Shown: positions 2,990-49,290 of the stretch, piece after piece | Numbering within the stretch: position 1 is the stretch's first letter | Layout of the letters: each line of letters starts with the position of its first letter | Assembly (NCBI GenBank): GCA_934101425.1 | Contig: CAKOQQ010000008.1 | Span: 3,088 to 67,087, forward strand | Direction: 5' to 3' | Length of the DNA stretch: 64,000 nucleotides | From: an uncultured Bacilli bacterium | GTDB lineage: Bacteria; Bacillota_I; Bacilli_A; RF39; UBA660 | Made by a program: the position numbers and the translations under genes | Notes under the pieces: generated by a model | What the model was told of the DNA's origin: nothing | Database searches by the model: none | The model's input: the letters and a program-made list of their open reading frames with translations, nothing else

Positions 2990-5900
2990 CTATTTATTAT
3001 CTAATTCTTTATAATAATTGTATCTTGAAATAGCATTATTCTTATTAGATTCTAATAATTCTTTATAATGATCTTCATTTACTTTTTTTAGCATATTATA
3101 TCTATTTTGCATACTTAAGAATTCATCATATAAGTCAAAATTAACATTTTTAGAATCTAAAGTAAATTTCTTATCTACTGGATTATAATGGAATATTGGG
3201 AAGTATCCACATTCTGTTGCTAATTTTTCCATCAATATACTATTTTCCATACCACCTTTTATACCATGTGATATACATGGACTATAAGCTATTATAATAG
3301 ATGGTCCATTATAATTTTCTGCTTCTTTAAATACTTTTAGTAATTGATTCATATTAGCTCCCATACTTACAGTTGCTACATATACATGTGGATATGATAA
3401 GGCTATACGAGCTAAATCTTTTTTAGCATTTTGTTTACCTTTTGCTGCAAATAATGCAACTGCTCCTTTAGGGCTTGCTTTACTAGCTTGTCCTCCAGTA
3501 TTTGAATATACTTGACTATCAAGTACTAATATATTTACATTATCATTTGTAGATAATACATGATCTATTCCACCATATCCTATATCATATGCCCAGCCAT
3601 CACCACCGATAGCCCATACACTTCTTTTAGCGATATAGTCTTTTAATTCATTTAATTCTTTTGGACAAGTATTATAGTCTAGGCTATCATATACTTGTTT
3701 AGTTATATCATAATTATCTATATTATTTATATATAACTCAAATAATTCACGGTTAGGATTATCCATATTATTTTCCATTATAGTTTTAATTCTATCTCTT
3801 ATTGTTTTATTTCCAATAAGTATACCATAACCATATTCAGCATTATCTTCAAATAAACTATTAGACCAAGGTAAGTTATATGGAGTTGATGGTACTGATC
3901 CACCATAAATAGATGAACATCCTGTAGCATTAGCTATTATCATGTTATCGCCAAATAATTGAGTTAATACTTTTATATATGGAGTTTCTCCACATCCTTG
4001 ACAAGCTCCACTATATTTAAATTTAGATTCTGTAAATTGACTATTAATAACATTATCTTTATTTATATGTTTATCTTTTATATTTTTACTTAAATAGTTA
4101 TATATATCTTGTTCTTCACTATTTAAAGGAGTAAGCGATAACGCCTTATTAGGACAATTATTTATACATACTTTGCATCCAGTACAATCCATCACTGAGA
4201 AACTAAGTAAATAATAATAGTCTTTTAATGCTGGTAATACTGGTTTTTTACATTTATTTTTTATATTATCCGGTAATTTACTATATTCTTCTTCATCTAT
4301 TAAAAATGGTCTTATTACTGCGTGAGGACAAATAAATGAACATTTATTACACATAATACATTTACTTATATCACAAGTTGGAACAGATGATGATATTCCT
4401 CTTTTATCAAATTTACTAGTATTAGGCATAAATGTACCATCTCTAAGAGGTATAAATTTAGATACTGGAATACTATCTCCTTTTCTATCTGACATTTCTT
4501 CATATAAGCTAGTTCCATAAGATACAAATTTACCTTCTAAATTGTCTAAATTTACTTCTTTTAAATAATTAACTGCTTCATCAATTGCTTTATAATTAGC
4601 TAAAACTACATCATCACCTTTTTTAGAAAATTTGTTTTTAGCATATAATTTCATTTCTTCTTTTGTTCTATCATAATCTATTACATTTGATAAATATAGA
4701 ATTACACTTTCCATAATAGTACTTATTTTACCAGGCAAGTTAATTTCTTCTGCTAGTTTATAAGCATTTATTGTATAGAATTTTATATTTTTTTCTAATA
4801 TTATTTTTTTTATATCATTATTTATTTTATTTAATTCATCAATATCTTTTTCGGTATTTAATATAAAAATACCATTTTCTTTTATATGTTCTAACATATT
4901 ATATTTATCTAAATATGTATCTTTAGTACATACTACTAATTTAGGATTTTCTACATAATATGTAGATTTTATTTTATTGTCATCAAATCTTAAATGACCA
5001 ATTGTTACTCCACCTGATTTTTTAGAATCATATTGAAAATATCCTTGTACATATTTATCTGTTAAGTTACCTACTAATTTTATAATTGATTTACAAGCTG
5101 ATACCATTCCATCAGATCCATACCCATATACTAAGAATTCTAAAGAATTACTTATTTTATATGTTTTATCAACTTCTAAACTTAAATTAGTAACATCATC
5201 ATTTATACCTATAGTAAAGTTATTTTTAGGATTATCAAGCATATCAAATACAGCTTTTATCATAGCGGCATTGGTATCTTTACTAGATAATCCATATCTA
5301 CCACCTACAATATTTATATTTTTATCTTTTAAAGCTGCTACTACATCTAAATATAATGGTTCACCAATACTTCCTGCTTCTTTAGTTCTATCTAAAACTG
5401 CAATACTTTCTACTGTAGAAGGTAAGACATTAAGTAAATGTTTTACACTAAATGGTCTATATAGATGTACTTCTATAAGGCCTATATCACCCTTTTCATA
5501 ATCAATAACACTTTTTATAGTTTCTGTTACTGATCCCATTGCTACTATTACTTTTTTAGCTGTTTTACTACCATAATAATTAAATGGCTTATAATCAGTA
5601 TTAGCGATTTTATTTATATCCATCATATATTTTTCTACAATATCTGCTACTTTATTATAATCATTATTTCTAGATTCTGTTATTTGAAAATATACATCAT
5701 CGTTTTCTGCAGTACCTCTTGTAAATGGTTTATTTGGATTTAGGGCTTTAGCTCTAAATTTATTTATACTATCATAAGGAACTAAAGGTTTTATATCCTC
5801 TAATTCTAAAGCATTTATCTTATCTATTTCATGACTAGTTCTAAAACCATCAAAGAAATGTAAAAATGGAATACTAGATTTAATACTAGATAAATGAGCT

Positions 5901-6352
5901 ACAGCAGCTAAATGATTAGCATTTTCAACACTACTTGATGCTAATATACAAAAACCAGTTTGTCTAGTTGCATATATATCTTGGTGATCTCCAAATATAC
6001 TAAGAGCATGAGTAGCTAGACTTCTTGCAGCTACATGAATAACTGCTGGTAACATTTCACCAGCCATTTTATACATATTAGGAATCATTAAAAGTAATCC
6101 TTGACTAGCTGTAAAAGTAGTAGTTAAAAGTCCTGATTGTAGTGATCCATGTACAAGGCCAGCGGCTCCTGCTTCACTTTGCATTTCAACTACTTTAACA
6201 CTATCATTAAAAATATTTTTTCTATCACTCCAATTATCAATACTTTCTGCCATTGGACTTGATGGTGTAATAGGATATATACCTGCTACTTCGGTAAACA
6301 TATATGCTGTGCTAGCACAAGCTTCATTTCCATCTACTGTTATTTTTCTCAT
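2990..6352 (-). CDS. por: pyruvate:ferredoxin (flavodoxin) oxidoreductase
   Basis: 1120 aa; two 4Fe-4S ferredoxin motifs (CIMCNKCSFICP, CTGCKVCINNCP); TPP motif GGDGWAYDIGYGG; full-length PFOR/NifJ architecture. Confidence 0.95.
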   Translation of the reverse strand: MRKITVDGNEACASTAYMFTEVAGIYPITPSSPMAESIDNWSDRKNIFNDSVKVVEMQSEAGAAGLVHGSLQSGLLTTTFTASQGLLLMIPNMYKMAGEMLPAVIHVAARSLATHALSIFGDHQDIYATRQTGFCILASSSVENANHLAAVAHLSSIKSSIPFLHFFDGFRTSHEIDKINALELEDIKPLVPYDSINKFRAKALNPNKPFTRGTAENDDVYFQITESRNNDYNKVADIVEKYMMDINKIANTDYKPFNYYGSKTAKKVIVAMGSVTETIKSVIDYEKGDIGLIEVHLYRPFSVKHLLNVLPSTVESIAVLDRTKEAGSIGEPLYLDVVAALKDKNINIVGGRYGLSSKDTNAAMIKAVFDMLDNPKNNFTIGINDDVTNLSLEVDKTYKISNSLEFLVYGYGSDGMVSACKSIIKLVGNLTDKYVQGYFQYDSKKSGGVTIGHLRFDDNKIKSTYYVENPKLVVCTKDTYLDKYNMLEHIKENGIFILNTEKDIDELNKINNDIKKIILEKNIKFYTINAYKLAEEINLPGKISTIMESVILYLSNVIDYDRTKEEMKLYAKNKFSKKGDDVVLANYKAIDEAVNYLKEVNLDNLEGKFVSYGTSLYEEMSDRKGDSIPVSKFIPLRDGTFMPNTSKFDKRGISSSVPTCDISKCIMCNKCSFICPHAVIRPFLIDEEEYSKLPDNIKNKCKKPVLPALKDYYYLLSFSVMDCTGCKVCINNCPNKALSLTPLNSEEQDIYNYLSKNIKDKHINKDNVINSQFTESKFKYSGACQGCGETPYIKVLTQLFGDNMIIANATGCSSIYGGSVPSTPYNLPWSNSLFEDNAEYGYGILIGNKTIRDRIKTIMENNMDNPNRELFELYINNIDNYDITKQVYDSLDYNTCPKELNELKDYIAKRSVWAIGGDGWAYDIGYGGIDHVLSTNDNVNILVLDSQVYSNTGGQASKASPKGAVALFAAKGKQNAKKDLARIALSYPHVYVATVSMGANMNQLLKVFKEAENYNGPSIIIAYSPCISHGIKGGMENSILMEKLATECGYFPIFHYNPVDKKFTLDSKNVNFDLYDEFLSMQNRYNMLKKVNEDHYKELLESNKNNAISRYNYYKELDNK

Positions 6353-30220: not shown

Positions 30221-31750
30221 TTAATATTGACTAGCAATCATAACAGATATTAACGAATATGAAGTCTTAATGGAAATAGTTTTATTTTCTTTATCAATCT
30301 GATAAATGGGGGTTTCTTCCCATTTTTGTGTTTTCAAATTAAAACTTAAAATTCTAATATCATTTTCATCAAATGTTAATGTTGGAACTGATATATCAAT
30401 ATTATGGACATTTTTTTCATCTTTATCATAACAATCAATACCATAATTTGATATATTAAATACACTAGTAATCGCGTTTGACCCCTCAATAAGTTCTTTT
30501 AAAAATTCTGTCTCAGAAGTGGTTTGCTTAGTTCCAGAGGCAGATAATAAATCAACTAATTTAATTTTTCCATCATTAAATTGTTTAATTTTATTGAACA
30601 CTATTTCTGGTAATTCTTCATATTCACTAAAATCATCAGAAATATAGTGTCCATAAGCACTATCATTAATTACATGTAAACTATTATCTGCACTAGCAGC
30701 ATTATGTACTAATATTTCATTTTCAGTAATTAAGTAGTTATGATTATTTGCTATTGTCAAGTTATATACATTCACTGAATTATCCAAATTAAGAACTTCT
30801 ATATTTTTTATACTAGTTTTTCCGCCAATACTAGCTGATAATACATCTCCCACTTTTAATTCATATGCTCTAACCCATCCTTTATCAAGTACATAATATT
30901 GATGCTTTTCTGTAGAAGTTATTACTTTATTATTTTTTAATGTTATTTTATATAATTTATTATTTTTTGAAATCATAGTATCAATAACTCTATTTAATTC
31001 TTTTTCGTTACTTTCAATATTTATTGTATATACATAATCACCAATTTTAATATCTTCAATATTCTTTAAACCATTTCTTGTTAATACTTTTGTTCCTGCT
31101 ACAAAACACGTTGAAATTTGAAACAATCCTTTTATTACTGCAACATTTCCAAAAACATCTTCACTTTCAATTTTATAAATATTTGATGCTTTATTAGAAG
31201 TCCCTAAATAAGTTTTTTCATTCCCTCTATAAACAAGTATACCATTTACAAAATATCTTATTTCTTTTATTCCACTCGTATCTGAAGTATTTACATCTAT
31301 TTTATAATTACTAGTACTAGTATTAGTAATTACAGCTGATAAAAGTGGTGCATCTTTTTCAGCACTTCTAAGTATACATTCACTTTCATTTGTTTTAGTG
31401 CTTACAATACTTCCATCACTTTTAATTTCAATACAGTAATCATTAACATACATTTTTCCATATGCATTACCATTAGTATCATAACTTAAATAACCTTTAC
31501 TTGCTTTATCTCCCTCATATGTAAGTGTACTACCCGATAAATCTATATTTTTTACTGTTTCTCCTTCCATTATTTTTTGCATATAATATGTTTTTGCAGC
31601 ACTTACTATATTTCTTGCACTTGCTTCTGCCGCACTTTTTTTAGAGTCTTCTATAATGTTTAATACGGCTGGTACCGCTATTAGTGCAATAACTGCTAGT
31701 ATTACTATAACGGCTAATAACTCTATTAGGGTAAATCCTTTCTTTTTCAT
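30221..31750 (-). CDS. type IV pilin-like protein fused to a Hint (intein-like) autoprocessing domain and a 159-aa C-terminal domain (paralog E)
   Basis: MKKKGFTLIELLAVIVILAV prepilin signal (G-1, F+1, E+5). Residues 1-125 are shared with four paralogs. Residues 215-350 run CFVAGTKVLT...TEKH...ILVHN (Cys1, TxxH, terminal HN); next residue is Ala. Confidence 0.85.
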   Translation of the reverse strand: MKKKGFTLIELLAVIVILAVIALIAVPAVLNIIEDSKKSAAEASARNIVSAAKTYYMQKIMEGETVKNIDLSGSTLTYEGDKASKGYLSYDTNGNAYGKMYVNDYCIEIKSDGSIVSTKTNESECILRSAEKDAPLLSAVITNTSTSNYKIDVNTSDTSGIKEIRYFVNGILVYRGNEKTYLGTSNKASNIYKIESEDVFGNVAVIKGLFQISTCFVAGTKVLTRNGLKNIEDIKIGDYVYTINIESNEKELNRVIDTMISKNNKLYKITLKNNKVITSTEKHQYYVLDKGWVRAYELKVGDVLSASIGGKTSIKNIEVLNLDNSVNVYNLTIANNHNYLITENEILVHNAASADNSLHVINDSAYGHYISDDFSEYEELPEIVFNKIKQFNDGKIKLVDLLSASGTKQTTSETEFLKELIEGSNAITSVFNISNYGIDCYDKDEKNVHNIDISVPTLTFDENDIRILSFNLKTQKWEETPIYQIDKENKTISIKTSYSLISVMIASQY

Positions 31751-31772
31751 ATATCCTCCTTCTATTTATAAG

Positions 31773-31816
31773 AAAACAAAAAACAAAAATCTAGGTTTTC
31801 CTAGTTTTTATGTTTT
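31773..31816 (-). promoter_or_regulatory. terminator-like hairpin plus U-rich tail in the 5' leader of pilin E
   Basis: AAAACATAAAAACTAGG-AAAA-CCTAGATTTTTGTTTT then TTGTTTTC. Lies between the promoter and the pilin RBS (AGGAGG). Confidence 0.5.
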
Positions 31817-31888
31817 ACATATATGACTAATAATTAAGTTATTTGATATGACTATTTCTCTACAAACATAGACATAATTACTAGACAT
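31808..31888 (-). CDS. candidate leader peptide (26 aa) upstream of pilin E
   Basis: ATG preceded by GTGAGG. Peptide MSSNYVYVCREIVISNNLIISHICKT. Stop TAA (31810-31808) lies in the 5' arm of the hairpin. Confidence 0.3.
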   Translation of the reverse strand: MSSNYVYVCREIVISNNLIISHICKT

Positions 31889-31911
31889 ATACCTCACTTT
31901 CTTACTATACA

Positions 31912-31940
31912 AGTATATATTCTTTTTGTTAAGTTGTAAA
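31912..31940 (-). promoter_or_regulatory. sigma-A-type promoter for pilin E leader
   Basis: TTTACA-17 nt-TATACT on the minus strand. Confidence 0.5.
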
Positions 31941-40134: not shown

Positions 40135-40210
40135 TGGCGCCTGATGTAGGACTCGAACCTACGACCTAACGGTTAACAGCCGTGCGCTCTACCGACTGAG
40201 CTAATCAGGC
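40135..40210 (-). tRNA. tRNA-Asn (GUU), CCA encoded
   Basis: Hand-folded cloverleaf: GCCTGAT acceptor, GCTC/GAGC D-stem, loop CTGTTAA, GTAGG/CCTAC T-stem, G73, CCA; 76 nt. Confidence 0.9.
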
Positions 40211-40213
40211 ATA

Positions 40214-40289
40214 TGGCGCTCAATGTAGGACTCGAACCTACGACCTAACGGTTAACAGCCGTGCGCTCTACCGACTGAGCTAATTGAGC
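40214..40289 (-). tRNA. tRNA-Asn (GUU), CCA encoded, second copy with different acceptor stem
   Basis: Identical to copy 1 from position 8 to 65. Acceptor is GCTCAAT/ATTGAGC instead of GCCTGAT/ATCAGGC. Confidence 0.9.
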
Positions 40290-40290
40290 A

Positions 40291-40541
40291 AATATAAAAC
40301 AGCACTCTCCACTAAAAGGGACGAATTACTGTTGTATCCGCGGTACCACCCAATTTATTATATTAAATATAATCACTTTTATGATATGTAATGTGGTAAC
40401 GGATTACAACCGAACTACTCTACTTAATTCGAATAGCTAGCTCCTTAGTGTTATTCATAATATACTTTATTGTTAGCTTCCACCATGCCTAACTCGCTTT
40501 AATTAGTACTTATTACTACTTCTCTATATCTTCGCCTTATG
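40291..40541 (-). promoter_or_regulatory. T-box leader, Asn specifier (AAC, overlapping AAU)
   Basis: T-box motif AAATTGGGTGGTACCGCGG (40356-40338). Antiterminator GGG[TGGTACC]GCG...CGTCCC. Competing terminator ACAGTAATTCGTCC/GGAGAGTGCTGT plus TTTTATATTT. Stem-I elements AGTA, GGTGGAAG. Specifier region ATGAATAACACT. Confidence 0.8.
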
Positions 40542-44896: not shown

Positions 44897-44942
44897 ATTA
44901 CATTTTTCTACAAAAAAAATGCTATAAGCATTTTAATTTGTA
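44897..44942. repeat. 46-bp direct repeat, copy 1 (contains a terminator hairpin)
   Basis: ATTACATTTTTCTACAAAAAAAATGCTATAAGCATTTTAATTTGTA, identical to 48648-48693. Minus strand AAAATGCT-TAT-AGCATTTT plus a T-run. Confidence 0.9.
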
Positions 44943-44981
44943 TAGTATACAATTATGTAAAAAGACTTTAGCATTTTCTTT

Positions 44982-46046
44982 CTATTGTGAAATATTAGAT
45001 TTTAAGACAGTTACAACTGGGCGCACACCGAAGCCTCCTATATGAGACACGCTGAAGTAGTACAATCTGCCACCTTGACTCACGAACCAAGCGCTGGAAG
45101 AAAAGCCGGAATGTGCAGTATTTGTCCAGTATCCATAAGTACTAGAATCTGCTACATTACATCCGAATCTTGTACAATCCTTTATATTATCAAATAGCCA
45201 TGCATATCTATTTGTTCCAGCATCTCCAGTGTATTGTGTTCCTAATGTGTTATTATGGAAGTAATACGCTTGATTATCCCAATTTGGATATCCTGTTATT
45301 GTTGCTATTTCTCTTGCTTCTATTAGTCTAGCATTTATACTTTTGTTCCAACTAGATGTATCACTTTTTAGTTGTTTTAATAATGTAATTGGTCCTTTAC
45401 TGTTATTTCCATGAAGATCATATTCTGCTTCTGTTCCACCTGATTCAATATAATCTTCTTCCGATATCCATGCAACTAATGCCGTTGTATTATGGTCTAG
45501 TAGTAGGTTTACTGTATCATTTCCTTCGTCATTAAAGATATACCATCTCATACATCCTGTTTTAGTCCCTGTAGTGCTTACTGCTTCACTACCACTACAT
45601 TTCTTATTTGTTTCTGGATTATAGTATACTACTGTTCCATTTGCGTATGTAGTTACTTGTGGAATGTCTATAGTGCATTCACTTTCATTTGTTTTAGTGC
45701 TTGTTATGGTTCCATTAGATGATACTTCAATGCAGTATCCTGATATATACATTTTACCACTTACATTACCGTTAGTATCATAACTAAGTAACCCTTTTTT
45801 TGCTTGTTCTCCATCATATTTTAATGTGTTAGTGCTTAAATCAATATTAGAATTTGTTTTATTATCCATTATATTTTTCATGTAATGTGTTTTTGCAGCA
45901 CCTACAATACTTCTTGCACTTGCTTCTGCTGCACTTTTTTTAGAATCTTCTATAATATTTAATACTGCTGGTGTTGCTATTACTGCAATAACTGCTAGTA
46001 TTACTATTACAGCGAGTAACTCTATTAGTGTAAATCCTTTTTTCAT
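44982..46046 (-). CDS. bimodular type IV pilin-like protein (paralog A)
   Basis: Start moved to MKKGFTLIELL (ATG 46046, GGAGG upstream). Pilin module plus a Cys-containing C-terminal module ending GVRPVVTV. Confidence 0.85.
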   Translation of the reverse strand: MKKGFTLIELLAVIVILAVIAVIATPAVLNIIEDSKKSAAEASARSIVGAAKTHYMKNIMDNKTNSNIDLSTNTLKYDGEQAKKGLLSYDTNGNVSGKMYISGYCIEVSSNGTITSTKTNESECTIDIPQVTTYANGTVVYYNPETNKKCSGSEAVSTTGTKTGCMRWYIFNDEGNDTVNLLLDHNTTALVAWISEEDYIESGGTEAEYDLHGNNSKGPITLLKQLKSDTSSWNKSINARLIEAREIATITGYPNWDNQAYYFHNNTLGTQYTGDAGTNRYAWLFDNIKDCTRFGCNVADSSTYGYWTNTAHSGFSSSAWFVSQGGRLYYFSVSHIGGFGVRPVVTVLKSNISQ

Positions 46047-46070
46047 ATATTCCTCCTCATATAAGGTATT

Positions 46071-46115
46071 AAAAAAAATCACAAAACTCTAGGAAATTCC
46101 TAGTTCTTGTGATTT
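46071..46115 (-). promoter_or_regulatory. intrinsic-terminator-like hairpin in the leader of pilin A
   Basis: Minus strand AAATCACAAGAACTAGG-AATTT-CCTAGAGTTTTGTGATTT followed by a T-run (T8 in total), about 25 nt upstream of the pilin ATG. Confidence 0.6.
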
Positions 46116-46195
46116 ATATACATGACTAATAGGTGGTTATTAAATATTAACCCCCCCCCACAAATATAAGAAGTATTATAATTTGTATTAGCCAT
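46100..46195 (-). CDS. candidate leader peptide (31 aa) containing the G9 tract
   Basis: AAGGAAGTGA RBS-like, then ATG. Peptide MANTNYNTSYICGGGLIFNNHLLVMYINHKN. Stop TAG (46102-46100) is inside the hairpin 5' arm. Confidence 0.35.
   Translation of the reverse strand: MANTNYNTSYICGGGLIFNNHLLVMYINHKN
46151..46159. repeat. C9/G9 homopolymer tract
   Basis: Nine consecutive C on the plus strand in a very AT-rich context. Encodes GGG GGG GGG of the leader ORF. Confidence 0.9.
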
Positions 46196-46218
46196 ATATT
46201 CACTTCCTTACTATATTT

Positions 46219-46247
46219 ATTATATCTTCTGATTTCGGTAATGTCAA
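46219..46247 (-). promoter_or_regulatory. consensus sigma-A promoter of pilin A leader
   Basis: TTGACA-17 nt-TATAAT. Confidence 0.7.
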
Positions 46248-46276: not shown

Positions 46277-47284
46277 TCAAGACATCAATAAAGCTTTATC
46301 TACAGTAATAACTGGGCGAATACCGTAATTGTCTGTATCCAAGTAGTATCTGAAAAAGAAGCCATAGTTGTTCACGATTCCATTGAGGTAAAAATTTCCG
46401 GAATATACATTGCCTGTCCAGTATCCCTCGTTACTAGAATCTGCTACATTACATCCAAATCTTGTACAATCTTTCGTGTTATCAAATAGCCATGCATATT
46501 TATTAGTTCCTGCTGCTCCTTCATAAGGCGTATTTGAATTTGTATGGAAATAATATGCATCGCTTCCTGCTGTATTTCCTGTTATTCTGACGATTTCGCT
46601 TTCTTCTATTAGTCTTGGGTTTATACTTTTATTCCAAGAGCTTGTATCACTTTCTAGTTGTGCTTTTACTTCAACTGAGTCATTAGTATTTGTACCACTT
46701 GATGCCAATGCAACAAATGCTGTCGTATTATGATCTAGTAGTAGATTAACTATATCATTTCCTTTATCATTAAATGCATACCACCTCATACATCCTGTTT
46801 TAGTTCCAGTAGTGCTTACTGCTTCAGCACTTGTACATTTACTGTTTGTTTCTGGATTATAGTATACTACTGTTCCATTTGCGTATGTTGTTACTTGTAG
46901 AACGTCTATATCACATTCACTTTCATTTGTTTTAGTGCTTGTAATAGTTCCATCAGATGATACTTCTACACAATAACCACTTATATACATTTTTCCATAT
47001 GCAGTACCATTAGTATCATAACTAAGTAATCCTTTTTTAGCTTGTTCTCCATCATATTTTAATGTGTTAGTGCTTAAATCAACATTAGAATTTGGTTTAT
47101 TATCCATTAGATTTTCCATGTAATGGCTTTCTGCAGTTCTTACTATATTTCTTGCACTTGCTTCTGCTGCACTTTTTTTAGAGTCTTCAATAACATTTAA
47201 TACTGCAGGGGTTGCTATTAGCGCTATTACTGCTAGTATTACTATTACTGCTAAGAGCTCTATTAATGTAAATCCTTTTTTCAT
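46277..47284 (-). CDS. bimodular type IV pilin-like protein (paralog B)
   Basis: MKKGFTLIELLAVIVILAVIALIA. Same module order; shorter middle region. AAGGAGG RBS. Confidence 0.85.
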   Translation of the reverse strand: MKKGFTLIELLAVIVILAVIALIATPAVLNVIEDSKKSAAEASARNIVRTAESHYMENLMDNKPNSNVDLSTNTLKYDGEQAKKGLLSYDTNGTAYGKMYISGYCVEVSSDGTITSTKTNESECDIDVLQVTTYANGTVVYYNPETNSKCTSAEAVSTTGTKTGCMRWYAFNDKGNDIVNLLLDHNTTAFVALASSGTNTNDSVEVKAQLESDTSSWNKSINPRLIEESEIVRITGNTAGSDAYYFHTNSNTPYEGAAGTNKYAWLFDNTKDCTRFGCNVADSSNEGYWTGNVYSGNFYLNGIVNNYGFFFRYYLDTDNYGIRPVITVDKALLMS

Positions 47285-47304
47285 TTTTCCTCCTTACTAT
47301 ATTT

Positions 47305-47333
47305 AGTATATCTTCCGATTTCGGTAATGCCAA
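47305..47333 (-). promoter_or_regulatory. promoter of pilin B (same promoter family, no leader module)
   Basis: TTGGCA-17 nt-TATACT, then AAATATAGTAAGGAGGAAAAATG. Spacer is near-identical to the A/C promoters. Confidence 0.6.
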
Positions 47334-47348
47334 TATTTTATAATTTTA

Positions 47349-48428
47349 TTATTGGGCTTCTAACTGATCTTTCAATAAAGCTTTATCTACAGTGATAACT
47401 GGGCGAACACCAAAGGTGTCTATTTCGGCTAAAACTCCTGATCCCATACCCCCTCCGGCGCTTACTCCCCATGCTCTATAAGAATTGTTGGAATATACAG
47501 TGCCTGTCCAGTATCCATCGTTACTAGAATCTGCTACATTACATCCAAATGTTGTACAATATTTCGTGTTATCAAATAACCATGCATATTTATTTGTTCC
47601 TGCCGCTCCTTGATAAACTATTTGTGTGTTATCATGGAAATAATAATAATCTATACCTGCTGTCCATGTTGTGTTATTAGTTATTTTAGCTATTTCACTT
47701 GCTTCTATTAATCTAGCATTTATAGTTTTATTCCATGTGCTCGTATCACTTTTTAGTTGTTTTAATAATGTAATTGGCCCTTTACTATTATTTCCATAGT
47801 CTCCCCATTCTGCTTCTGTTCCACCTGCTGCAATATAATCTTCTTTTGATATCCAATCTACAGCTGCTGTTGTATTATGATCTAGTATTAAATTAACTTT
47901 AGATGATCCTTCATCATTAAATATATACCACTTCATACATCCTGTTTTTGTTCCTGTCACGCTTACTGTTTCCATTTTATGGCATGGCATGTTTATTTCA
48001 GGATTATAGATTACTACTCTTCCATTAGCATATCTTTTTTGTGGCTTTTCTATAATGCATTCATTTTCATCTGTTTTATCACTTGTAATAGTACCATTAT
48101 TTAGTATTTCTACACAATAACCACTTATATGCATTTTTCCATATGCTATTCCGTCTTCATTATAGTATAAATATCCTTTACTTGGTTTTTTTCCACTATA
48201 AGATAGTATATCACTAGATAAATCAATACCTGTTATTTCTTCATCTTTGTCTAGATTACTTGTATAATATTTTTCTGCTATGTTTTTTATCATTCTAGCA
48301 TCATTTTCTGCACTTTTCTTTTTTGCATTATTTACTGTTTTCTTTACTGCTGGTACTGCTATTAGTAGTATTACTGCTAGTATTACTATTACTGCGAGTA
48401 ACTCTATTAGGGTAAATCCTTTTTTCAT
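47349..48428 (-). CDS. bimodular type IV pilin-like protein (paralog C)
   Basis: MKKGFTLIELLAVIVILAVILLIA. Pilin module more diverged; C-terminal module conserved (GVRPVITV). Confidence 0.85.
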   Translation of the reverse strand: MKKGFTLIELLAVIVILAVILLIAVPAVKKTVNNAKKKSAENDARMIKNIAEKYYTSNLDKDEEITGIDLSSDILSYSGKKPSKGYLYYNEDGIAYGKMHISGYCVEILNNGTITSDKTDENECIIEKPQKRYANGRVVIYNPEINMPCHKMETVSVTGTKTGCMKWYIFNDEGSSKVNLILDHNTTAAVDWISKEDYIAAGGTEAEWGDYGNNSKGPITLLKQLKSDTSTWNKTINARLIEASEIAKITNNTTWTAGIDYYYFHDNTQIVYQGAAGTNKYAWLFDNTKYCTTFGCNVADSSNDGYWTGTVYSNNSYRAWGVSAGGGMGSGVLAEIDTFGVRPVITVDKALLKDQLEAQ

Positions 48429-48452
48429 ATATTCCTCCTCATATAAGGTATT

Positions 48453-48496
48453 AAAAAAATCACAAAACTCTAGGAAATTCCTAGTTCTTGTGATTT
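48453..48496 (-). promoter_or_regulatory. intrinsic-terminator-like hairpin in the leader of pilin C
   Basis: Same sequence as 46071-46115 except the T-run is 7 rather than 8. Confidence 0.6.
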
Positions 48497-48576
48497 ATAT
48501 ACATGACTAATAGGTGGTTATTAAATATTAACCCCCCCCCACAAATATAAGAAGTATTATATTTTGTATTAGCCAT
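48481..48576 (-). CDS. candidate leader peptide (31 aa) containing the G9 tract
   Basis: Same as 46100-46195 with one substitution (N5K). Stop TAG is inside the hairpin. Confidence 0.35.
   Translation of the reverse strand: MANTKYNTSYICGGGLIFNNHLLVMYINHKN
48532..48540. repeat. C9/G9 homopolymer tract
   Basis: Nine consecutive C on the plus strand. Confidence 0.9.
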
Positions 48577-48599
48577 ATATTCACTTCCTTACTATATTT

Positions 48600-48628
48600 A
48601 TTATATCTTCCGATTTCGGTAATGTCAA
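48600..48628 (-). promoter_or_regulatory. consensus sigma-A promoter of pilin C leader
   Basis: TTGACA-17 nt-TATAAT. Confidence 0.7.
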
Positions 48629-48647: not shown

Positions 48648-48693
48648 ATTACATTTTTCTACAAAAAAAATGCTATAAGCATTTTAATTTGTA
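48648..48693. repeat. 46-bp direct repeat, copy 2 (3' end of the GDPD gene plus its terminator)
   Basis: Identical to 44897-44942. Includes the last 7 codons (YKLKCL-stop region) of the 48673-49290 gene. Confidence 0.9.
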
Positions 48694-49290
48694 AGGAATA
48701 TCCGTTATTATATTAATTTCTTTATTTAATAACTTTATATTCTTATATATTTCTATATCATTTATAGTCCATATATAATCTATATATTTATATTTATTTA
48801 GATAAGTATATTTTACTGAATTAAAATCTAAATTATTTCTAAAGCGGAATTTATTTTTATTAGTACCTATAAGTAATCCACATTTATAATTATAATTTTT
48901 ATGTATATATTTTATTAGTCTATAATTAAAACTACATAAAGCGATATTTAAATGACTATATTTTTTTAATATCATATCTAAATATGTAATAAATTCTTTA
49001 TCTTTTTTTTCACTTTTTACTTCTATTAGTATAAGTTTTATAGTATCTAATCTTTTTAATAAATCATCTAATCTATCTAATTTTAATTCATTATAATTAG
49101 TATTATTAACTTCTAAGTTATTATATATATAATCATGATTTAATACTATTTCTTTATCTTTAGTAAACATTATATCTACTTCTACACCATCAACATAATC
49201 TCTATTTAAAGAAAATACTACCGCTTCGATAGTATTTTCTTTATAGTTATGATTATCATTACCTCTATGAGATATAATCATCATATCCAA
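48673..49290 (-). CDS. glycerophosphodiester phosphodiesterase family protein
   Basis: IISHRGN...ENT...VEVDI...HD motifs of GDPD. Overlaps mraY by 10 nt. Confidence 0.75.
   Translation of the reverse strand: MDMMIISHRGNDNHNYKENTIEAVVFSLNRDYVDGVEVDIMFTKDKEIVLNHDYIYNNLEVNNTNYNELKLDRLDDLLKRLDTIKLILIEVKSEKKDKEFITYLDMILKKYSHLNIALCSFNYRLIKYIHKNYNYKCGLLIGTNKNKFRFRNNLDFNSVKYTYLNKYKYIDYIWTINDIEIYKNIKLLNKEINIITDIPYKLKCL

Follow-up and report, generated by a model that had tools for sequence, protein, structure and literature searches.

The window analysed here is a 64 kb stretch of DNA (26% GC) from an uncultured Bacilli bacterium (contig CAKOQQ010000008.1), and our subject is the 5' leader that stands in front of several of its pilin-like surface-protein genes. 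Five such paralogs (A to E) lie in the window, all with a type IV pilin N-terminus and with C, B and A in tandem; pilins A, B, C and E and their leaders are on the minus strand. An earlier note, made from the letters alone, had counted three paralogs, each preceded by a module of promoter, short open reading frame (ORF) and terminator hairpin. The module is present before pilins A, C and E, and the count has to be extended: pilin B has a short leader, and pilin D a promoter unrelated to the leader promoter. The features referred to below are as follows.

46247-46219, minus strand: promoter of leader A (TTGACA 46247-46242, 17-nt spacer, TATAAT 46224-46219), with a predicted transcription start near 46212
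46209-46100, minus strand: upstream ORF (uORF) of leader A, with Shine-Dalgarno (SD) sequence AAGGAAGTGA at 46209-46200, ATG at 46195-46193, 31 codons and TAG at 46102-46100
46151-46159, minus strand: G9 homopolymer of leader A, read as uORF codons GGG GGG GGG
46115-46076, minus strand: stem-loop of the intrinsic terminator of leader A (free energy -16.8 kcal/mol), with T8 at 46078-46071
44982-46058, minus strand: pilin A, 354 amino acids with a type IV pilin N-terminus, including its SD GAGGAGG at 46058-46052 and its ATG at 46046
48453-48628, minus strand: leader C, with promoter at 48628-48600, uORF ATG at 48576-48574 and G9 at 48540-48532
48496-48453, minus strand: 3' part of leader C, with the terminator at 48496-48457, TAG at 48483-48481 and T7 reaching to 48453; the pilin C ATG is at 48428
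31768-31940, minus strand: leader E, with TTTACA at 31940-31935, a 17-nt spacer, TATACT at 31917-31912 and no G-run
31888-31808, minus strand: uORF of leader E, with ATG at 31888-31886, 26 codons and TAA at 31810-31808 in the 5' arm of the terminator
31816-31768 (start approximate), minus strand: 3' part of leader E, with the terminator at about 31816-31780 and the 3' arm of helix P0 (see below) at 31776-31768; the pilin E ATG is at 31750
47285-47333, minus strand: short leader of B type, TTGGCA-17-TATACT and the leader SD fused to the pilin B ATG at 47284

Leaders A and C (46047-46247 and 48429-48628) are near-identical, as had been noted, differing by two substitutions and by T8 versus T7 in the T-run. 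Among paralogs from several genomes the leaders are 94-100% identical compared to 72-86% for the pilin coding DNA, in keeping with the earlier claim that the leader is the better conserved of the two; the sequence ahead of the -35 hexamer shows no relationship. The promoter of leaders A and C matches the consensus at 12/12 positions; the leader promoter occurs in three copies in the window and in none of the shuffles. The SD of the uORF matches AAGGAGGTGA at 9/10 positions and is followed after 4 nt by the ATG (9 nt from the GGA core), and the TAG lies inside the 5' arm of the terminator in leaders A and C alike. The leader terminators consist of a stem of -16.8 to -19.1 kcal/mol and a T7-T9 tail, and the 24 nt that separate the end of the terminator from the pilin ATG (about 25 in the earlier estimate) are too short for another promoter. 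Leader E has the layout previously ascribed to it, with TTTACA-17-TATACT, a 26-codon uORF and a stop codon in the 5' arm of the hairpin, but it had been treated as non-homologous, whereas it aligns with A and C at ~65% identity and is for this reason a diverged homolog rather than a convergent look-alike. Leaders C and E each follow directly after the upstream gene's own terminator, and each has its own consensus promoter. The B-type leader lacks both uORF and terminator, is found in the same form in L081 and L223 (comparison loci are given by their L numbers), and is apparently an SD-to-SD deletion of uORF plus terminator.

What the earlier description of the reading frame left out is the G9 run inside the uORF (46151-46159 in leader A; 48532-48540 in leader C). 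Nowhere else in the window is there a G/C run of 7 or more. For comparison we used contigs from other samples that encode the same or closely related pilins, and in such near-identical contigs, among orthologous as well as paralogous copies, the run comprises 6, 8, 9 or 10 G. The same leader is found at several chromosomal sites, beside GDPD, polC, a HlyIII gene and aspS. Over 9,065 nt L204 matches the window exactly, and a comparison of L204 with L205 over these 9,065 nt yields 13 changes. Only two of them are indels: leader C goes from G9 to G6, and the terminator tail of leader A from T8 to T7. In L207 and L208, which encode the same pilin, the 8,297 nt that align differ at two places only, both of them in the leader: one is again G9 to G6, the other a G to T change by which the terminator stem gains an A-U pair in place of an A.G mismatch. 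Run length also differs between copies within one assembly (G10 and G6 in ERZ27287367, G9 and G8 in ERZ28614809), and in L224 the run is interrupted (GGGAGG). Two contigs end inside the leader, L083 at the G-run and L222 elsewhere, which is ambiguous given that the leader is itself a repeat. As far as assembled contigs can be trusted, this variation is the signature of a hypermutable contingency tract.

Other parts of the leader vary too. The T-run of the terminator differs in length (T8 at 46071-46078, T7 at 48453-48459, T9 at 2967-2975 of L221), and terminator strength may therefore also be drifting or tuned. In L202 (511-760, minus strand) a leader variant with GAGGGG as its run is intact, and the pilin downstream has decayed to a fragment, with an early stop (MKKKLY*). 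In L206 (785-2208) an insertion sequence element (a transposase of the rve family plus a helix-turn-helix ORF) lies directly upstream of an identical pilin A, in the place of the leader and of pilins C and B. At the paralog of the DNA pol III/RRF locus (L210, 3880-4000) the promoter, the TATAGTAAGGA box and the ATACCTTATA box are kept, while the ~60 nt between both boxes are unrelated and form no hairpin; this looks like another decayed or recombined form of the leader. No window-type leader was found at several pilin paralogs with plain promoters (the ParB-L9 locus: L209, L211-L220).

Run length determines where the uORF ends. With 6, 9 or 12 G the uORF has 30-32 codons and its TAG lies 13 nt into the 5' arm of the terminator; with 7, 8, 10 or 11 G the frame runs into a UAA 27-34 nt short of that arm. 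The long frame is observed in window leaders A and C and in L207 (all G9) as well as in leader C of L205 and in L208 (both G6), and the short frame in L081 and L221 (G8) and in L082 (G10). Three leaders have no slippery run (L224 with GGGAGG, L202 with GAGGGG, and window leader E), and all three are in the long frame, although the frame used for the 3' half of window E and L202 is not that of A and C. Relative to the start of the 5' arm, the stop is at +13 in A and C, +6 in E and +24 in L202, and at +31 (L016, L007) and -1 (L035) in leaders of other species that we describe below, so that a translatable leader ORF overlaps or abuts the terminator. The geometry predicts that gain or loss of one G shifts the uORF stop by ~47 nt (a 9-nt difference with G10, a 47-nt difference with G8). 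The peptide, on the other hand, is truncated to 15-19 residues in 5 of the 13 full-length loci examined, and L224 carries the non-synonymous changes T4I and T8A; these changes, together with the change of frame, imply that the uORF peptide itself is not conserved, and on this point the earlier note, which had argued that the architecture is conserved and not the peptide, was right.

Two helices beside the terminator recur in the predicted folds of the leader. Their positions in leader A are:

46199-46187 with 46130-46118, minus strand: helix P1, AUAUAUGGCUAAU (which includes the AUG of the uORF) pairing with AUUAGUCAUGUAU (the ATTAGTCAT block)
46211-46206 with 46066-46061, minus strand: helix P0, GUAAGG (transcript 5' end and uORF SD) pairing with CCUUAU

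P1 ends 2 nt before the terminator. The 3' arm of P0 lies just past the terminator, and this helix is possible only in read-through RNA. Independent minimum free energy folds of window A, L202, window E, L016 and L007 contain P0, P1 and the terminator in all cases. The helix sequences differ among these five leaders, with full complementarity and with a longer perfect P0 in L016 and L007 (other P0 pairings are GUAAGAAAG/UUUUCUUAU and AGUAAAGGUA/UACCUUUACU, and P1 is also found as AUAGUAUGGUUAAA/UUUAAUCAUACUAU); P0, with differing sequence, is present in every folded lineage except L035. Fold z-scores range from -3.4 to -6.9, and in the window's group 97.6% of cells pair compared to 37-63% in slid controls. 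The block that leaders A, C and E share, and that is indeed read in different frames in A and C versus E, pairs in these folds and is consequently the 3' arm of P1. As to covariation, proposed earlier as a check, P0 has one formal compensatory pair (G-C to A-U), and in ~5 pairs of P1 both bases change from the window type to the L016 type; the latter were counted by eye and not by column, since MAFFT misaligned the 5' halves of window-type versus L016-type leaders and cross-lineage helices were for this reason compared from independent folds. Varying the run from 5 to 12 G leaves the predicted P1 and terminator unchanged (free energies of -39.3 to -41.8), and an effect of run length on the predicted RNA fold was rejected. 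When the 3' arm of the terminator is blocked, its 5' arm makes a 4-bp contact only and finds no alternative helix; with no antiterminator, mutually exclusive helices of the trp type are ruled out as well. Given that run length has no effect on the fold and that there is no antiterminator, the ribosome is the only obvious reader of run length.

The pilin has roughly 4,400 homologs. A profile search with the pilin alignment listed matches (L001-L080) that are distant relatives, with at most 41% pilin identity, and the sequence pattern of the window-type leader is absent among these distant loci. Scanning the regions upstream of 95 pilin-like starts in L001-L080 for the architecture, we find G-runs and terminators before several of them. 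Four loci from other uncultured Bacilli (L016, L007, L012 and L035) have a G6-G9 run followed by a terminator and T-run; their pilins are 29-42% identical over most of the match, the L035 match being limited to residues 2-47. An SD-ATG uORF is also present in L016, L007 and L035, and the L012 contig begins inside the uORF. L016 and L007 share TTGACA/TGTATAAT, the SD AAAGGTAGTGA, an ATG uORF with TGG GGG GGG and the terminator AAACACAAAGTTTCTAGAC...GTCTAGATTTCTTTGTGTTTTTTT; L035 has the equivalent set in a different sequence. In each of the four, exactly one frame extends to the hairpin or, in L035, to a stop that falls 1 nt short of the 5' arm; the two remaining frames end 19-39 nt earlier. 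The run of L007 (G6) sets the long frame, that of L016 and L035 (G9) a short one. By shuffling, the one-frame pattern has a chance of 0.19-0.31 per lineage, and of ~0.004 jointly if the lineages are independent; we consider this supportive of the architecture, as judged from sequence, and not decisive. Note also that all 13 runs of at least 8 G in 550 kb of low-GC loci (other species, matches listed) lie just upstream of this gene family. A covariance model of the window-type leaders retrieves nothing in other species at default filters. A metagenome search with a 16-nt leader pattern gave 120 matches, essentially all of them due to chance, with L202 as the only true leader, and a 32-nt leader pattern had no match in viral contigs.

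Two further arrangements of G-runs were seen in this survey. In L006 (3749, 5074, 6920), L079 (119) and L033 (1), which belong to other low-GC gut Bacilli, G9-G10 occupies a promoter spacer (for example TTGACT-N9-G10-TATGAT) before genes that share the C-terminal domain of these pilins, in what, by its sequence, appears to be classic spacer-type phase variation. A third type of leader (L002 at 414 and 3967; L014 at 3940; L020 at 3936; L025 at 3940) has a small hairpin, GTTTGC..GCAAAC, and then G9 or G10 as the 5' arm of a terminator-like stem, in which the G-run pairs with CCCTCTT/ACCTCTTCTT and is followed by a T-run 28-55 nt before the gene start; here, too, run length varies between paralogs.

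How might the gain or loss of one G matter to the pilin gene? We suggest, as a reading that is somewhat probable, that the leader is a phase-variable, ribosome-gated transcription terminator in front of pilin-like surface-protein genes. A strong promoter of the sigma-70 type would start a leader of roughly 165 nt, a ribosome would load on the strong SD and AUG of the short uORF with its nine G, and slipped-strand mispairing during replication would alter the length of the run. With 6 or 9 G, a multiple of three, the uORF would stay open as far as the stop codon within the terminator hairpin, so that the first ribosome behind RNA polymerase would cover the 5' arm, the hairpin would not form and transcription would read through into the pilin gene (ON). 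With 8 or 10 G the ribosome would leave at the UAA 27-34 nt before the hairpin; once it is gone, P1 and the terminator would fold and transcription would stop at the T-run (OFF). A change of a single G would thus probably switch the pilin gene on or off, and, with the frame of the uORF setting the masking by the pioneer ribosome, the paralogs would be switched stochastically without the pilin gene ever being damaged. P1 may serve as a pause hairpin, which the ribosome catches up with and releases, as in the trp leader, and P0 in the read-through mRNA would probably shut the uORF and protect the 5' end. There is precedent for such gating in E. coli, where a single added G brought a stop codon from 28 bp to 5 bp ahead of terminator tR2, with termination falling from ~90% to <10% in a translation-dependent manner (PMC4824070); attenuation at pyrBI, likewise, requires tight coupling of the ribosome across the leader peptide (PMC5021804). 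The earlier note had already proposed a translation-sensitive attenuator, which fits the comparative data, with exactly one frame running from a conserved SD-ATG into the hairpin, or to within 1 nt of it, in four diverged lineages; what it missed is the poly-G input.

A number of points weigh against this reading. Bacillus subtilis RNA polymerase often outruns its ribosomes, which means that the proposed mechanism requires a pause, and such a pause also has to be assumed because the uORF is only 93 nt long. In E. coli, terminators are reported to be efficient when they lie less than 100 bp into a coding region, the ribosome still being behind (PMC4824070). The anatomy of the leader, the hypervariability of the G-run, the frame geometry and the recurrence of the layout across species are well supported by the sequences, but the suppression of termination by translation, the assignment of ON and OFF to the frames and the roles of P0 and P1 are predictions only. 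Run lengths were taken from assembled contigs, some at ~7x coverage, and the sample amounts to about a dozen loci, not all of them independent. The frame pattern, taken lineage by lineage, is unremarkable (p 0.2-0.3), and the covariance model run without filters over 23.5 kb, although it places L007 first and L016 second, does so with weak scores (18.7 and 15.0 bits, E 0.05-0.35). Finally, P0 and P1 are conserved helices beyond what a minimal version of the model needs, so that part of the function may be RNA-based.

This last point leads to an explanation in which the leader is a structured 5' untranslated region (P0, P1, terminator) that acts at the RNA level only, with an incidental uORF and a G-run that tunes the fold; in its variants, the leader would be an attenuator controlled by a protein or ligand, or a 5' stabiliser or processing module. 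That P0 and P1 recur across lineages with different helix sequences, folding well below shuffled controls, speaks for it. So does the ATTAGTCAT block, which, being conserved and yet read in two frames, must be kept as RNA or DNA and not as peptide, and so does the SD-like box at the very 5' end, placed in a terminal helix as in known 5' stabilisers such as the STAB-SD of Bacillus thuringiensis cry3A. If the run tuned the fold, however, we would not expect 5 to 12 G to leave P1 and the terminator as they are, nor would we expect its pairing partner to vary (CCACC, CCGCC, CCATC). Blocking the 3' arm exposes neither an antiterminator nor an expression platform, Rfam offers no match, and the long frame of all non-slippery copies and the jumps from 9 to 6 G are left unexplained. 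We consider an RNA-level explanation, in all its variants taken together, unlikely. If, by contrast, the product of the uORF mattered, as a functional peptide of ~30 residues with its own promoter and terminator and with the pilin expressed by read-through only, the good SD, the ATG and the terminator would find an explanation, as would the G-[LV]-(I)-F-N-(N)-H stretch that long-frame products share between lineages. That stretch, however, coincides with the 3' arm of P1, so that nucleotide constraint suffices to explain it, and a functional peptide is hard to reconcile with the change of frame between the A/C type and the E/L202 type, with accumulating non-synonymous changes, with truncation in 5/13 loci and with a uORF that gene callers do not call; we regard this explanation as very improbable indeed.

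Systematic error or plain neutrality might also produce the pattern if the hairpin were an ordinary leaky terminator or insulator and variation in the G-run neutral noise or an assembly artefact. Homopolymers are error-prone, contigs do break inside the repeated leader (L083, L222), and a hairpin at this position would end the transcripts of an upstream gene or of pilins C-B; there being no terminator between pilin B and leader A, the hairpin of leader A would in fact also end C-B transcripts. Against this, leaders C and E follow a gene that already has its own terminator, and have consensus promoters of their own. A neutral G9 would be expected to decay at 26% GC, yet the 13 long runs in other species all precede this family, and different lengths among copies in one assembly argue against a systematic artefact. 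This combination of insulator and noise strikes us as distinctly improbable. We also considered the G-run as the spacer of an internal promoter and rejected this: the run begins 60 nt downstream of the -10 hexamer, there is no plausible -35, and no credible -35/-10 pair flanks the run. An invertible element was rejected as well, for although the arms of P1 are 13-nt inverted repeats, ~12 leaders are all in the same orientation.

The ribosome-gated terminator that we favour can be set beside several known systems. As far as sequence goes, the leader has the attributes of both a pyrBI/pyrE-type attenuator and a contingency locus based on a simple sequence repeat (SSR): a promoter-proximal intrinsic terminator lies between start site and structural gene, and a long homopolymer stands by a surface-protein gene, with a length polymorphism that exceeds other changes among close strains. 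Rfam 15 at the gathering threshold identifies in the window only a T-box, tRNA and an L20 leader, all elsewhere, and permissive scans of both leaders return chance matches only (E > 0.7), so that the scan suggested earlier finds no riboswitch or leader family that matches. The nearest relatives are attenuators that work by ribosome occlusion in E. coli, namely pyrBI with its leader pyrL, and rph-pyrE (PMC5021804; PMC3203608 for the pyrE attenuator downstream of rph). As here, these and tR2 have an intrinsic terminator before the structural gene, an upstream ORF that ends in or next to the terminator and no antiterminator helix, a close ribosome preventing the hairpin (as we propose for our case); as we propose for our leader, too, shifting the frame by one base so that the stop falls ~25-30 nt further upstream restores termination at tR2. 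They differ in their input, which is physiological in pyrBI and pyrE (UTP-dependent pausing), a laboratory mutation in tR2 and, we propose, a hypermutable poly-G tract here. Compared to pyrBI and pyrE, moreover, the host is low-GC and Bacillota-like, and there are the extra conserved helices P0 and P1.

The poly-G genes of Campylobacter are an example of SSR-mediated phase variation of surface structures. Others are Neisseria pilC and siaD (Lavitola 1999, via PMC3025981) and the poly-G tract of Moraxella uspA1 (Lafontaine 2001, via PMC2791445). With all of these our leader shares a long G/C homopolymer in an AT-rich genome, near surface-protein paralogs, and tract lengths that differ between near-identical strains. 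Known SSR tracts, however, sit in a promoter spacer or inside the structural gene, whereas ours belongs to a leader uORF distinct from the pilin gene, with the predicted start site ~47 nt upstream and the pilin ATG ~105 nt downstream, and the pilin ORF is never disrupted. In siaD a frameshift is reported to cause premature transcription termination that is Rho-dependent and intracistronic (Lavitola 1999, via PMC3025981), compared to the intrinsic terminator proposed here. Unlike in promoter-spacer poly-G, the run is outside the -35/-10 region, although spacer tracts do exist for related genes (L006, L079). Clostridioides difficile cwpV is another Gram-positive surface-protein gene in which phase variation acts between promoter and ORF; there, a recombinase inverts 195 bp and an intrinsic terminator is, as here, proposed to act in the OFF leader transcript (PMC2784873); in our case it is a homopolymer that varies and a ribosome that is the proposed reader, with no inverted variant among ~12 loci. 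The trp, his and pheL attenuators resemble our leader in having a short leader ORF before a terminator, and P1 is reminiscent of their 1:2 pause hairpin, but our leader has neither regulatory codon runs nor an alternative antiterminator. C. difficile pilA1, finally, has a c-di-GMP-II riboswitch upstream. The two leaders have in common a terminator, a type IV pilin gene and a Gram-positive gut bacterium; ours, however, has no Rfam match, no aptamer-like conserved core and no competing helix.

Repeat-slippage phase variation and ribosome-dependent attenuation are each textbook mechanisms. Our literature search turned up neither a terminator-coupled SSR within a leader peptide or uORF nor a description of the two mechanisms combined in a dedicated leader uORF. 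That we are dealing with a new class of contingency switch and at the same time with a new family of cis-regulatory RNA in uncultured gut Bacilli, in which a poly-G uORF read by frame gates a terminator and P0 and P1 serve pausing, coupling and 5'-end protection, seems to us an evenly balanced proposition. If true, it would add a mechanistic class of contingency loci that leaves the structural gene intact, show transcription-translation coupling to be exploited in a gut lineage of low-GC, Gram-positive type, and provide an unannotated leader RNA family by which phase-variable surface genes can be recognised in metagenomes. It would also imply extensive stochastic variation of pilins in abundant, uncultured Bacilli of the human gut, whose genomes hold at least 10 pilin loci each, with regulated, constitutive and promoter-spacer types mixed.

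Some features of the pilin genes and their neighbourhood deserve mention in their own right. Pilin E (30221-31750, minus strand) combines its type IV pilin N-terminus with a Big_7 Ig domain, with a Hint domain of PT-HINT/intein-like type (E = 9e-19) and with a C-terminal extension, by its domain composition a polymorphic-toxin-like architecture on a pilin scaffold. A 53-nt direct repeat that is 94% identical between its copies (44897-44949 and 48648-48700) flanks the whole C-B-A array and includes the GDPD terminator; in L224, where the locus has a single pilin, this duplication is likewise present on both sides (4745-4795, 6105-6150), an arrangement that suggests cassette insertion or duplication at the GDPD site. 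Further away in the window, a T-box leader (128 bits; 40135-40541, minus strand) is directly followed by two tRNA-Asn(GTT) genes and then, downstream to ~35596, by gatC-gatA-gatB and an AsnS-like synthetase, an unusual operon of T-box, tRNA genes and Asn-tRNA pathway.

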